Shown: positions 34,495-45,115 of the stretch, one piece after another | How the letters are laid out: each line of letters opens with the position of its first letter | How positions within the stretch are numbered: position 1 is the first letter of the stretch | DNA from: Escherichia coli | GTDB lineage: Bacteria; Pseudomonadota; Gammaproteobacteria; Enterobacterales; Enterobacteriaceae | Direction: 5' to 3' (one strand) | DNA length: 64,000 nucleotides | Assembly (NCBI RefSeq): GCF_016026235.1 | Contig: NZ_CP065613.1 | Notes under the pieces: model-generated | What the model was told of the DNA's origin: nothing | What the model saw: only the letters and a program-made list of their open reading frames with translations | The model's database searches: none | Translations under genes and position numbers: made by a program

Positions 34495-34628
34495 TTGTCG
34501 TTATTTACACCGCGGTTTCGCATTCATTGCCTGATGCGACGCTGCTGCGTCTTATCAGGCCTACAAAACCAAACCGTAGGTTGGATAAGGCGTTCACGCC
34601 GCATCCGACAAACAGCGCCTGATGCGAC
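34495..34628. repeat. REP/BIME cluster between cpsG and cpsB
   Basis: Repeated gcctgatgcgacg...cgtcttatcaggcctac and ggataaggcgttcacgccgcatcc palindromic units. Confidence 0.6.
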
Positions 34629-34630
34629 GT

Positions 34631-36067
34631 TTACACCCGTCCGTAGCGATCCGCGAAGCGCACCACATCATCCTCTTCGAGATAAGAGCCGGAGCGCACT
34701 TCAATTAAATCGAGCGGAATTTTCCCCGGGTTTTCCAGGCAGTGCGTCGCCCCCAGCGGAATATAAATCGACTCGTTTTCACCAAGCAGTTTGATATCAC
34801 CATCGATAGTGACTTTTGCCGTTCCCGCGACCACCACCCAGTGTTCCGCGCGGTGATGGTGCATCTGTACCGACAAGCCTTCGCCCGGTTTCACGGTGAT
34901 GCGTTTCACCTGGTAGCGGTCGCCCGCGTCGATAGAGTCATATTTGCCCCACGGACGATACACTTCGCGATGCACCCGATGCTCATGGCGACCATCGGCT
35001 TTGATCTGCTCGACCACTTTTTTCACATCCTGCACCGCGTTACGGTCGGCAATCAGCACCGCATCTTTGGTCTGCACTACCACCAAATCTTTCACCCCGA
35101 CGGTGGTGACCAGGCCAGATTCGGCATACACATAGCTGTTTTCGGTTTTGTGATTAATCACATCGCCGTGGCAAACGTTGCCCTCGGCGGTGTGGGCGCT
35201 GATTTCCCATAAAGAGGACCAGGAGCCAACATCGCTCCAGCCCGCATCCATCGGCACCACAACAGCATCTGCCGTACGTTCCATGACCGCGTAATCCACC
35301 GACTCTTCCGGGCAGGCCAGAAACGCTTCTTCATCCACGCGAATAAAATCGAGATCCGGATCGACGGCGCTCATCGCTTGTTCACAGGCGTCGAGAATAT
35401 CCGGGCGATATTTTTTCAGTTCTTCGAGATAGCGTCCGGCGCGGAACAGGAACATGCCGCTGTTCCAGTAATATTCGCCGCTTGCCACATAGGCCTGGGC
35501 GGTTTCCAGATTCGGTTTTTCGACAAACTGCGCCACTTCAAAGGCCACCGTATCCTGCTCACCCGCCGACACTTCACCGCGACGAATATAGCCATATCCG
35601 GTTTCAGGTAGATCCGGCACAATGCCGAAGATCACCAGCTTGCCCGCTTCGGCATACGGCATGGCATTACGCACGGCGGCACGGAACGCGTCTTCATCGG
35701 CAATCACATGATCCGCCGCCAGCACCAGCATTAACGGGTCGCTCTCCGGGCTATGACGTTTTGCCGCCAGCGCCGCCAGTGCAATGGCAGGTGCAGTGTT
35801 ACGCCCTGCCGGTTCGAGAATAATGTTCTCGGTGAGTTTGTTCAGTTGACGCAGCTGTTCCGCGACAATAAAGCGGTGCTGCTCATTGCAAATCACCACT
35901 GGGCTTTCGCACTCCACGCCGTTCAGGCGGCAGATGGTGGTTTGCAGCATGGTGAGATCGCCTTTCAGGCATAAAAACTGCTTGGGGTAAAGTACGCGGG
36001 AAAGCGGCCATAAGCGGCTACCGGAGCCACCTGCCATCACAACTGGATAGAGTTTCGACTGCGCCAT
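34631..36067 (-). CDS. cpsB: Mannose-1-phosphate guanylyltransferase
   Basis: 478 aa; nucleotidyltransferase N-terminus ([16 protein letters not shown]) plus cupin C-terminus. Confidence 0.93.
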
Positions 36068-36069
36068 AA

Positions 36070-37293
36070 TTATCCCCGAATATCATTTATAAATTGACGT
36101 AACACGTTCTCTTTATCGAGTGTGCGTTCGGCATATTCACGTGCCACCGTGTTGTGTTTGGGCAGCAGGAGCGCCTGACGGATCCCCGCCACCAGCGCCT
36201 CGACCGATTCCGGTTCTACGCAAACCGCAATGCCCGGAAAGGTTTCGCAAAGCTGCCCCAGTTCTGTGTGGGCCTCTGCGGTAATCACCGCGTTACCGCC
36301 TACCGCCAGAATATTGGTCAGTTTCGACGGCAATACGGCATCTGCCGCACCGCGTTTTTGCACCACCAGATGGCAATCGCCCATCTTCAGCAGTGCGGGT
36401 AAAGCGTCATACGATTGCAGCGGGAAAAATTGCATGTTGCGCAGTCCACGCTGCTGCGCCATTTTTTCCAGCCGCGCTTTGCCGCCGCCCTGCCCGACAA
36501 TGGCAAAAATCAGCGGTTCATCGCGCAGACGATCGGCAGCTTCAATAACGTTTTCCAGCCCCTGCTTTTCACCAATATTGCCGGAGTAAAGAATGATTTT
36601 TTTGTTATCCGGCAGGTCAAGCTGGTTACGAAGGGCGTCAACATCGGCATCTGCAACATGCTGAAAACGGGCAATTTCCGACCAGTTGGGGAAGAAGATG
36701 ACGTTTTCCGCCGCCACGCCTTTTTCGATGGCTTTATTCATCATCGAACGCGAAATCGTGGAGACGTTATCGACGTTATGCAGTCCGCTACGTTCGAACG
36801 CCGTTGCCAGCTGTGCCACTTTGCCGCCTTTGCCTTTTCCGGCAAGGCCCAGCCCCAGCATGGCGTCCACTTCGTAATCCTGAATATGCAGCACGGTACG
36901 CGCACCAGAGAGCTTCGCCAGCAGGCGCATTCCCGGCGTGCAAAACAGCGTTGGCACTACGCCGATAATGCGATCCGGCTTCCAGCGACGTTGCGCCATC
37001 AGTGGAAAGAAACTGCTGACGGCAAAACTGCCGAGATGCAACAAGCGTTTCAGGGTGCTCGGCTGTTTTGGCACGTACAGCGGGCAGCGCCACACCGTGG
37101 CGGCCCCCTCTTCTCGTTTGTAGCGCCAGGCGGAATAGTTCTCACCCACCTGCCATTGCGGGTAGTAAGGCGGTGCGGTAATGACCCGCACCTCATGACC
37201 TTGTGCCGCCAGCCATTCCACCATCTCGCCGGTGTATTTGCCGATGCCGGTTAACTCCGGCGAGTAGTTAATGCCGTAGACCAGTATTTTCAT
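36070..37293 (-). CDS. wcaI: Colanic acid glycosyltransferase WcaI
   Basis: 407 aa GT-B glycosyltransferase; position. Confidence 0.9.
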
Positions 37294-37772
37294 AATCCGG
37301 GTACTCCGGCACGCTTCTCAGCGAGAAAATAGGCGCGGCTGTTAGCGTGAACATCGTTACTGGCGAGCAGCGCGTCCGGCGTCAGCCAGCGGTAATCGTC
37401 ATGCTGCTCATCCGGCAGTAACAGCTCTTCTTCCGCTACTCTGAAGCGAAAACCGAGCACCACATAGTGAGTGGTGAAATCCGTGCCGGAGAAGTTATCG
37501 TCATAAAAGTGCTGCCAGACACCGTAAAACTGGCCTGCTGTTATCGGCAGACGCAGCCCCAGTTCCGCCATCGTCAGCCGCTCAAATGCGGCTTCCAGCG
37601 TTTCGTCTTTCTGCACGCGCCCTCCCGGCACAAACCAGTAACCCTGCGCCGGGCGGTTGGTTCTTTTGCCAAGCAGAAACTCGCCGCGACTGTTCTCGAC
37701 AATAAAGTCGAGAGAGACAAGCGGTGTGGAGCGCACTACCGTGGCAAAGTCTTCCTGACGTAAAAACATCAT
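37290..37772 (-). CDS. gmm: GDP-mannose mannosyl hydrolase (Nudix)
   Basis: 160 aa; Nudix-type sequence; position between wcaI and fcl. Exact start (MM versus M) uncertain by 3 nt. Confidence 0.9.
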
Positions 37773-43618: not shown

Positions 43619-44103
43619 TTAATTACCTTCACTCGCGCTTTTTCTCCCACCACCAGCGCGTTGTCCGAGACAGAGTCGAGCACCACGCTGCCCGCGCCCA
43701 CGGTGACGTTGTTACCAAGCGTGATATCACCAAGAATAATGACGTTGGCACCGAGTTCGACGCCGTTGCCAATGTGTGGACATGCCATGTTATCGGCACC
43801 ACGATTGCCGATAGTGACGCCGTGGCGAATGGTGAAATCATCCCCCGCTACCACGTTTTTATTGATCACTACGGCGTAACCGTGATGGATAGTAAAGCGG
43901 CGGCCAATGGTCGCGGCTGCCTGGATTTCATAACCGAAAAAGCATTCGGTGATAATGCGATACAGCACCAGCAGCGGGGCCGCCCACAGATTGTTGAGGA
44001 CGTTCTTTTTGCGCCACACCGAACAAAAATGAGCGACGCGATAGGCAAGAACCATGCAGCACGGGCGTAAACTCCAGCTGTTGGCGCGTAGATCTTCCAG
44101 CAT
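43615..44103 (-). CDS. wcaB: Colanic acid acetyltransferase WcaB
   Basis: 162 aa hexapeptide acetyltransferase; position. Confidence 0.9.
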   Translation of the reverse strand: MLEDLRANSWSLRPCCMVLAYRVAHFCSVWRKKNVLNNLWAAPLLVLYRIITECFFGYEIQAAATIGRRFTIHHGYAVVINKNVVAGDDFTIRHGVTIGNRGADNMACPHIGNGVELGANVIILGDITLGNNVTVGAGSVVLDSVSDNALVVGEKARVKVIK

Positions 44104-44105
44104 CT

Positions 44106-44945
44106 TTAGCGCCCCCGAATACCATCAGCCAGACGTTTGCCGTTACGCACCGACAGCAGCGTCAGCAAAGTGCGCCAGGTCATACGTTTATTGCGGATCT
44201 GGTAGAGGGTAAACAGCTGATATTTTTTACTGGCACGGTCGAATTTGTCTTTGTGCTTGCGGTAAAAGTGGAAGTATCCGGAGAATTTTTTCGGTGACGA
44301 GGTGATCTGCATTTCACCGTGATTGATATGCAGGATCTGCGTCGCCTCTTCCACTTTCCACGGTTCGCCATACTCCACCACCATCCGCAGGAAGATGTCG
44401 TAATCCTGTGCCGCTTTCAGTTCGGTATCGAACAAACACTCTTTGAAACGCCATGCCCAGGTAAAGACCTGATTGCCAATGATATTGCGTTTATAGAACA
44501 GGCGGCGTGAATACGGCGATTTGGGATACAGCGGCAAGCTTGCCGGTTGGGAATAGACTTCGCCCTGGCAAACGTAGTCGTTAGCGTACAAAAAGGCGTG
44601 AGTGACCAGTTGCTGTTTATGGGCGAGGAAGACGCTCAGACGGTTGGGTGTCCATTCATCATCATCATCGATCCCGGTGATGTATTCCCCTTGCGCCAGC
44701 ATAATCGCCTGGTTACGTACCGCGCACGCCCCGCTGTTAATGTCGTTGTGAATGTAAGTGATACGCGGATCGTTGAGGGCGGTGACGTACTGTTGCAGTT
44801 GTTCCCAGGAGGTGGAGCAATCATCCACGATGATCATCTCCCAGTTGCTGTAGTCCTGGCGCAGGACCGATTTTATCGCCCGAATCGCCAGTTGTTGGCG
44901 GTTCCAGGTCGGCATATAGATTGAAATCAGCGGATTGTCTTTCAT
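44106..44945 (-). CDS. wcaA: Colanic acid glycosyltransferase WcaA (GT2)
   Basis: 279 aa GT2 (ISIYMPTWNRQQ ... VDDCS); position. Confidence 0.9.
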   Translation of the reverse strand: MKDNPLISIYMPTWNRQQLAIRAIKSVLRQDYSNWEMIIVDDCSTSWEQLQQYVTALNDPRITYIHNDINSGACAVRNQAIMLAQGEYITGIDDDDEWTPNRLSVFLAHKQQLVTHAFLYANDYVCQGEVYSQPASLPLYPKSPYSRRLFYKRNIIGNQVFTWAWRFKECLFDTELKAAQDYDIFLRMVVEYGEPWKVEEATQILHINHGEMQITSSPKKFSGYFHFYRKHKDKFDRASKKYQLFTLYQIRNKRMTWRTLLTLLSVRNGKRLADGIRGR

Positions 44946-44974
44946 TGGTTGTTCTCCCGGAGTGTCGAGATGTT

Positions 44975-45115
44975 CTGCCGGTTTATAAGCTTGTTTACGG
45001 GTTCTGTTGCCGGATGCGGCGTGAGCGCCTTATCCGGCCTACGGAGCTGGTTTGCTTGCCGGATGCGGCGTGAAGGTAGGTCGGATAAGATGCGTCAGCA
45101 TCGCATCCGACAGCG
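44975..45115. repeat. REP/BIME cluster between wcaA and wzc
   Basis: Two or three copies of gccggatgcggcgtga...cgccttatccggcctac type palindromic units. Confidence 0.65.

Follow-up and report, generated by a model that had tools for sequence, protein, structure and literature searches.

The 64-kb window analysed here (the whole stretch of 64,000 nucleotides, nt) covers the his/O-antigen/colanic-acid region of a non-K-12 Escherichia coli, as established from an open reading frame (ORF) map and a megablast search of 5426 complete E. coli genomes. Within its colanic acid (cps) operon, clustered repetitive extragenic palindromes (REPs), organised as bacterial interspersed mosaic elements (BIMEs), occupy the wzc-wcaA gap, where the export genes wza-wzb-wzc meet the biosynthetic genes, and the cpsB-cpsG gap further downstream. 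The reading favoured here, to which we give a probability of roughly 0.6, is that these are ordinary REP/BIMEs which vary in copy number between strains and mildly bias expression towards the genes upstream of them, while in the cpsB-cpsG gap the REP copies are dispensable and the conserved element is another one, the algC leader of cpsG.

An earlier sequence-only reading had located multi-copy REP clusters in these two gaps, inside a long co-directional operon. Motif counts, alignment and folds confirmed the identification, and the gap limits agreed to the nucleotide with the ORF map; RefSeq annotation of matching genomes identified the gaps as wzc-wcaA and cpsB-cpsG. The window contains 8 occurrences of the REP tail motif CTTATCMGGCCTAC where 0.48 are expected, a count reached in 0 of 100 shuffles, and 22 of the head motif GCCKGATGCGRCG where 5.25 are expected, again unreached by any shuffle. 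A search of the window with the 38-nt full REP consensus (fixed 6-nt loop, up to 3 mismatches) gave no match because loop lengths vary among REP types, and it was the split head and tail motifs that succeeded. The motif scans delineated ten REP copies, every one of them intergenic. The K-12 annotation NC_000913.3 is without REP features and was unusable as a reference REP map.

Alignment of eight window REPs with two REPs of K-12 revealed the common pattern GTAGG...GATAAG...CGCATC...GGC and two length classes, which match the types that PMC8266576 calls y (35 nt) and z2 (37 nt). The definition of a REP in the same paper includes a GTAG tetranucleotide directly 5′ of the palindrome, and all four complete gap REPs as well as the other four aligned window REPs started with GTAGG. 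Folded individually, the complete gap REPs gave hairpins of 34-37 nt, within the 20-50 nt that define the imperfect palindrome of a REP, with −13.2 to −19.7 kcal/mol each and an internal 2x2 mismatch; across the window the complete REPs ranged from −13 to −21 kcal/mol. The stable stem-loops on which the sequence-only reading hinged were thus present, and on the mRNA strand the entire gaps folded with −68.4 kcal/mol (wzc-wcaA, z = −5.2) and −82.8 kcal/mol (cpsB-cpsG, z = −5.45), values equalled by no shuffle. BLAST matches outside the locus were confined to the REP segments (median 2-6 places per E. coli genome), those at query positions 227-267 matching the REP at 45075-45111, and dispersed further copies were present in every E. 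coli genome. The REPs also matched the REP-derived Rfam family naRNA4 below its threshold, the REP at 45009-45042 with 40 bits. No gene for a REP-associated tyrosine transposase (RAYT, TnpA-REP) was found in the window.

Each of the two gaps, the widest in the operon and its only roomy junctions, holds two complete REPs in opposite orientation and one truncated REP (Table 1). In the cpsB-cpsG gap a y and a z2 REP stand tail to tail with an 11-nt linker and together make up an 88-bp unit (34529-34616) bounded by a 13-nt direct repeat, the second copy of which is a half REP beginning 1 nt past the cpsB stop codon; the first complete REP follows 21 nt from that stop. The stem base of the y REP is weakened by GTTGG in place of GCCGG, and the fold of the gap predicts pairing between the half REP and the arm of the next REP. 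In the wzc-wcaA gap, the first hairpin on the mRNA is formed by the REP at 45075-45111, 10-11 nt past the wzc stop codon, and the adjacent truncated REP belongs to a 49-bp internal duplication (direct repeats 45000-45024 and 45049-45073). An inverse REP pair, short linkers and a variable tandem copy number, as found here, define a BIME of the y/z2 tandem type. The elements are therefore ordinary E. coli REP/BIMEs, with y- and z2-type REPs alternating in orientation and clusters ending in a truncated REP. With known E. coli REP/BIMEs they share the GTAG, the imperfect palindrome of 34-37 nt with its internal AA/GC mismatch, the inverse pairing, the tandem pair unit, the extragenic location and the dispersal, and nothing essential differs; the truncated REP at a direct-repeat boundary at the end of each cluster is the particular trait here. 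We take this tandemly amplifiable y/z2 arrangement to be what is called BIME-2, an assignment that is provisional.

The comparison with reference genomes that had been proposed showed both gaps to be length-polymorphic, differing by whole REP units. To estimate how frequent the alleles are, an even sample of 60 rows was drawn from a ranked list of roughly 5300-5400 E. coli genomes. The 88-bp unit of the cpsB-cpsG gap occurred once in the window, twice in strain ST130, 3.1 times in strain 55989 (Tandem Repeats Finder, TRF) and not at all in K-12, where the 13-nt half REP is the sole remnant. About 50% of the genomes had one unit, 7% two and 15% none (K-12 and EC958 among the last), and a further 10% had a REP-less variant. 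The REP-less variant (for example in UTAK-4, L005 340-440) has a changed cpsB 3′ end, a TAG stop and a small unrelated hairpin, CCGGATTAATTCTCCGG, which suggests that the end of cpsB was replaced through recombination, perhaps with the O-antigen manC. At wzc-wcaA, the 177-nt allele of the window (2.5 REPs) accounted for about 22% of the genomes, a 128-nt allele with 1.5 REPs (including ST131) for about 17%, and a 92-nt allele with one REP (K-12, BL21, O157) for about 50%; the 128-nt allele lacks exactly the 49-bp internal duplication. At least one REP was retained in every wzc-wcaA allele examined in E. coli. A third polymorphic BIME site of the cps operon is the wzxC-wcaK gap, which in the window (30069-30138) is 70 nt long without any REP and in K-12 (L001 23406-23680) 275 nt long with four REPs, equal to two y+z2 units. 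These alleles show that copy number shifts between strains by recombination or slippage between REPs of the same orientation, in units of 88 bp at cpsB-cpsG and 49 bp at wzc-wcaA.

REPs at these exact junctions and REP-containing indels between strains were described by Iguchi et al. 2011 (PMC3158064), who also found the REP at wcaA-wzc kept in all strains. Six O157 strains were compared there; the present analysis sized the alleles, estimated their frequencies over about 5300 genomes and followed the junctions through 79 species of Enterobacteriaceae. Earlier publications accordingly already cover the REPs at the junctions, the indels that make them polymorphic and the notion that a hairpin behind wzc attenuates or stabilises. 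What is added here is the range of alleles, the recognition of the algC leader within the cpsB-cpsG gap and the observation that unrelated families of palindromes have repeatedly filled the site behind wzc.

What is conserved in the cpsB-cpsG gap is the algC leader of cpsG, which the sequence-only reading had overlooked. A candidate cis-regulatory leader, the algC RNA motif (Rfam RF02929), was aligned over model positions 1-52 of 52 and lies 4 nt upstream of the start of cpsG, which encodes phosphomannomutase; the BIME is positioned between the cpsB stop and this leader. The motif consists of a 5-bp hairpin followed by AGGGCCAACUGUUGCCUGAAAAAGGGUAA, and it was intact in all five of the E. coli gap alleles compared, REP-less ones included. 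Its tail was found in 49 of 55 related species. In the six species without it the cpsB-cpsG gap can be as little as 53-54 nt long, so the motif may be the reason for the usual large size of this gap. Between genera the hairpin stem varies in sequence and the 3′ tail is nearly invariant. In its full-length match upstream of a phosphomannomutase gene the element resembles known algC RNA motifs; it differs in sharing its gap with REPs, from which it is separate. For annotation, the cpsB-cpsG gap thus holds a distinct conserved candidate regulatory RNA that is not to be lumped with the REPs.

A scan of genome contigs for WcaA gave 80 Enterobacteriaceae loci in which the junctions of the operon could be compared. 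From wza to cpsB, each junction was overlapping or tight (median gap at most 26 nt) except wzc-wcaA (61-76 species per junction), where the median gap was 107 nt; of 76 species, 65 had a gap of 50 nt or more and 60 a fold of at most −20 kcal/mol. Strong folds at the other non-overlapping junctions were found in 12 of 65 species (wcaF-gmd), 2 of 67 (wcaE-wcaF) and 0 of 67 (wcaD-wcaE). Counted as hairpins, 63 of 79 species had a strong one in the wzc-wcaA gap, and in 58 of these 63 it began within 15 nt of the wzc stop by a crude measure of the hairpin start. The gap was filled by E. coli-type REPs in 18 species (Escherichia, Citrobacter, Salmonella), by nested palindromes with CCCTCTCCC/GGGAGAGGG in 36 species (Enterobacter, Lelliottia, Kluyvera, Phytobacter and others) and by other hairpins in 13 species. 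The nested CCCTCACCC..CCCTCTCCC..GGGAGAGGG..GGGTGAGGG palindromes of the 36 species (L008-L086, mostly directly upstream of position 10001) are unrelated to the E. coli REPs; some of them form arrays that extend to 353 nt and for which folds as low as −204 kcal/mol are predicted (L066, L036 and L029 are examples). Because many species share their insertions by descent, the number of independent insertion events is small. Selection for a hairpin behind wzc is compatible with this pattern, and so is the alternative that the 5′ half of the operon offers a single permissive site for insertion. It is rather unlikely that the hairpin behind the wzc stop is a selected module of colanic-acid and group 1 capsule operons which sets the ratio of export to biosynthesis and is repeatedly supplied by the active palindrome family of the host, in which case capsule output would be tuned by how many REPs a strain has (1, 1.5 or 2.5). 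Were that hairpin such a selected dial, the 92-, 128- and 177-nt alleles together with the 0-3 units at cpsB-cpsG might help to explain differences in mucoidy between strains.

The Rfam scan of the whole window at gathering thresholds returned three matches, the algC motif and two JUMPstart RNAs, which lie in the wza leader and upstream of the O-antigen genes, respectively. Both JUMPstart sites contain the operon polarity suppressor (ops) element GGCGGTAG, at wza in positions 49059-49066 on the non-template strand, and the two sites mark both polysaccharide operons as probably RfaH-dependent. A chromatin immunoprecipitation signal of RfaH at the wza ops site was reported for CFT073 lacking hns and stpA (PMC9765446). 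In all, GGCGGTAG occurs 5 times in the window where 1.2 occurrences would be expected; the true JUMPstart sites account for 2 of these. An ops-like match in the wcaI coding sequence (36300-36307, minus strand, the non-template strand there; context GGCGGTAGGCGG) does not match the full 12-nt ops sequence and is probably due to chance. A promoter scan of the mRNA strand of both gaps detected no sigma-70-like site, and an internal promoter is therefore unsupported.

The expected effect on expression follows published observations on REPs as a class. REPs act as barriers to 3′-to-5′ exonucleases and as attenuators (PMC12306157; PMC6061677), REP325 being both an mRNA stabiliser and a partially Rho-dependent terminator (bioRxiv 10.64898/2026.03.23.713779). 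In the same preprint, the log ratio of upstream to downstream expression had a median of 0.96 in tandem gene pairs containing a REP and of −0.09 in controls, the values being widely spread. For capsule operons, a stem-loop attenuator right after wzc in the cps operon has been stated (PMC2516531), RfaH was needed for transcription downstream of wzc (PMC3673037) and Klebsiella cps clusters carry a stem-loop between wzc and wbaP (PMC3438125). An expression bias towards wza-wzb-wzc fits both the class-level evidence on REPs and the published statements on the wzc attenuator and RfaH. In the proposed mechanism the REPs would be transcribed in the wza-to-wcaM mRNA and form very stable hairpins just past the wzc and cpsB stops. 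These would act as local, modest and context-dependent 3′-end elements that block 3′-to-5′ exonucleases and stabilise the mRNA segment upstream. Some partly Rho-dependent attenuation may be added, largely overridden by RfaH loaded at JUMPstart/ops, and on balance expression of wza-wzb-wzc would be mildly favoured. A close parallel is REP325 of the yjdMN operon, a REP cluster between co-directional genes of one operon for which an upstream bias is expected; it differs in that the cps operon would be transcribed by a polymerase carrying RfaH loaded at JUMPstart, which should counteract Rho.

Several points weigh against such a bias. It is plausible, and its size and even its direction are drawn from the behaviour of REPs as a class, the effects of which vary highly with context (bioRxiv 10.64898/2026.03.23.713779). 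Quantitative PCR fold changes in K92, which are relative and not absolute levels, were without a sharp step at wzc-wcaA (PMC3673037). As JUMPstart/ops upstream of wza recruits RfaH, termination should be blunted, and a scan of the mRNA strand over 34439-34630 and 44946-45122 found no intrinsic terminator with a U-tract, the sequences past the REP stems reading CCUACC..., AACAGAACC... and CCUACGGUUUGG... Moreover, 12 of 79 species had no strong hairpin after wzc. Eleven of these have a gap of 19-34 nt (Leclercia, Silvania, Cedecea, Pseudescherichia and some other Enterobacteriaceae) and the twelfth, Citrobacter sp. MGH106, one of 79 nt. Finally, about 25% of the E. coli genomes are without a complete REP at cpsB-cpsG. 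Since they are absent from K-12 and from this quarter of the genomes, the cpsB-cpsG REPs are regarded as dispensable passengers. In the literature we found neither transcript levels across the wzc-wcaA junction, nor protein data for the two junctions, nor a demonstration of attenuation at wzc-wcaA in the colanic-acid operon.

The hairpins after wzc might be a dedicated attenuator, terminating a fixed fraction of transcripts with RfaH setting the read-through, on the model of the K30 group 1 and Klebsiella cps operons. The site directly after wzc, the border between export and biosynthesis and the control by JUMPstart/RfaH are shared with the wzc-wbaP attenuator of those operons, and the three published statements given above, the JUMPstart upstream of wza, the strong hairpin in 63 of 79 species and the REP kept in every E. 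coli allele examined all agree with it. The hairpins here are REPs, though, with no U-tract behind them on the mRNA strand, and the hairpin is missing in the 12 of 79 species just described, 11 of them with gaps of 19-34 nt. Rahn and Whitfield in 2003 reportedly demonstrated the attenuator for K30 and not for colanic acid. The stem-loop statement in PMC2516531, moreover, rests on a general RfaH review as its cited source. A dedicated attenuator is on balance doubtful. The odds are also clearly below even that the REPs are neutral throughout, selfish or hitch-hiking repeats which gather where the operon tolerates a spacer and have no meaningful effect on cps expression. Their copy number varies freely between strains at three junctions of the operon, the other junctions are overlapping or tight and so offer few insertion sites, and K-12, the standard model strain for colanic acid, has no complete REP at cpsB-cpsG; polymorphism of intergenic BIMEs is well documented according to Bachellier 1997, as cited in PMC3158064. 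Neutrality sits less well with the occupancy of wzc-wcaA, at 60 of 76 species far above wcaF-gmd (12/65), wcaE-wcaF (2/67) and wcaD-wcaE (0/67), with the at least three unrelated repeat families that occupy the site, and with the genome-wide upstream bias of REP-containing tandem pairs.

An effect in the opposite direction, on translation, is unlikely. By the rule of Liang, Rudd and Deutscher, as summarised in PMC12306157, a REP less than 16 nt downstream of a stop can lower translation of the upstream gene; the hairpin would stall the terminating ribosome, leading to mRNA cleavage and to lower levels of Wzc and possibly CpsB. The first REP stem after wzc in the window is in range, as is that of the 128-nt allele, and so, by the crude hairpin-start measure, are the 58 of 63 hairpins within 15 nt of the wzc stop. 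In the 92-nt allele, by contrast, which is the most frequent one in E. coli (about 50% of genomes, including K-12), GTAG is 24 nt and the stem 28 nt from the stop. After cpsB the half REP is 1 nt past the stop, with its predicted pairing to the next REP arm, but the first complete REP at 21 nt lies beyond 16 nt, which leaves only the half REP in range. Very improbable is a role at the DNA level, in which BIMEs would bind gyrase or provide break points for recombination, aiding the exchange of O-antigen and colanic-acid DNA. BIME-2 elements, the provisional assignment of the repeats here, are gyrase targets according to Espeli and Boccard 1997, as cited in PMC12306157, and some REP-containing indels coincide with similarity junctions around the O157 cluster; Iguchi et al. 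2011 (PMC3158064) nevertheless call the supporting cases few, and local slippage between direct repeats accounts for the indels observed here.

Table 1. Positions of REP elements, RNA motifs, gaps and cps genes in the window.
Feature	Position	Strand	Details
wzc-wcaA intergenic gap	44946-45122	-	177 nt; BIME of 2.5 REPs; ORF map, RefSeq annotation of matching genomes, mRNA-strand fold
Complete REP, z2-like length (36-37 nt)	45075-45111	+	GTAG on +; inverted repeat I3; −19.4 kcal/mol; alignment
Truncated REP, head arm without GTAG tail	45058-45074	-	Direct repeat D1, spacing 49
Complete y-type REP, 34 nt	45009-45042	-	GTAG on -; inverted repeat I4; −19.5 kcal/mol; alignment
cpsB-cpsG intergenic gap	34439-34630	-	192 nt; one 88-bp BIME unit, half REP and algC RNA motif
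Half REP, 13-nt head arm	34617-34629	-	Direct repeat of 34529-34541 (D1, spacing 88)
Complete y-type REP, 34 nt	34576-34609	+	GTAG on +; −13.2 kcal/mol; alignment
Complete z2-type REP, 36 nt	34529-34564	-	GTAG on -; −19.7 kcal/mol; alignment
algC RNA motif (RF02929), candidate cis-regulatory leader, not REP	34443-34492	-	76.6 bits against gathering threshold 33.8
JUMPstart RNA (RF01707), wza leader	49055-49093	-	57.3 bits against 35
JUMPstart RNA upstream of O-antigen genes	24801-24839	-	With ops GGCGGTAG; Rfam scan
wza	47737-48876	-	cps operon ORF map
wzb	47288-47731	-	cps operon ORF map
wzc	45123-47285	-	Stop codon 45125-45123; ORF map
wcaA	44106-44945	-	ORF map
cpsB	34631-36067	-	Stop codon 34633-34631; ORF map
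cpsG	33068-34438	-	Start at 34438; ORF map
z2-type REP between convergent yegH and asmA	51335-51371	-	−20.4 kcal/mol
Short REP, 25 nt, just past dgcE	58234-58258	-	−8.7 kcal/mol
hisI-wzz gap, two opposite REPs	5284-5365		Degenerate short REP 5284-5311 and complete REP 5330-5365

The minus strand carries the cps operon, whose remaining biosynthetic genes are placed between wcaA and cpsB, and the gene order is identical in the MG1655 annotation. Outside the operon, single REPs had been claimed after hisI, yegH and dgcE. REPs were indeed present at all three places; the placement after yegH had to be corrected, as that REP is 20 nt from the stop of asmA and 217 nt from the stop of yegH, and hisI is followed by two REPs and not by one. 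Between the yegH stop and its REP (51119-51334), a further strong inverted repeat, CCAGGGTGG...CCACCCTGG, is located at about 51205-51235 and has no Rfam match at gathering thresholds. Beside the REP pair of the hisI-wzz gap, at 5366-5400, a hairpin CGGGCA...TGCCCG is flanked by an A-run on one side and a T-rich stretch on the other, an arrangement resembling a terminator that works in both directions, here between the convergent hisI and wzz genes.

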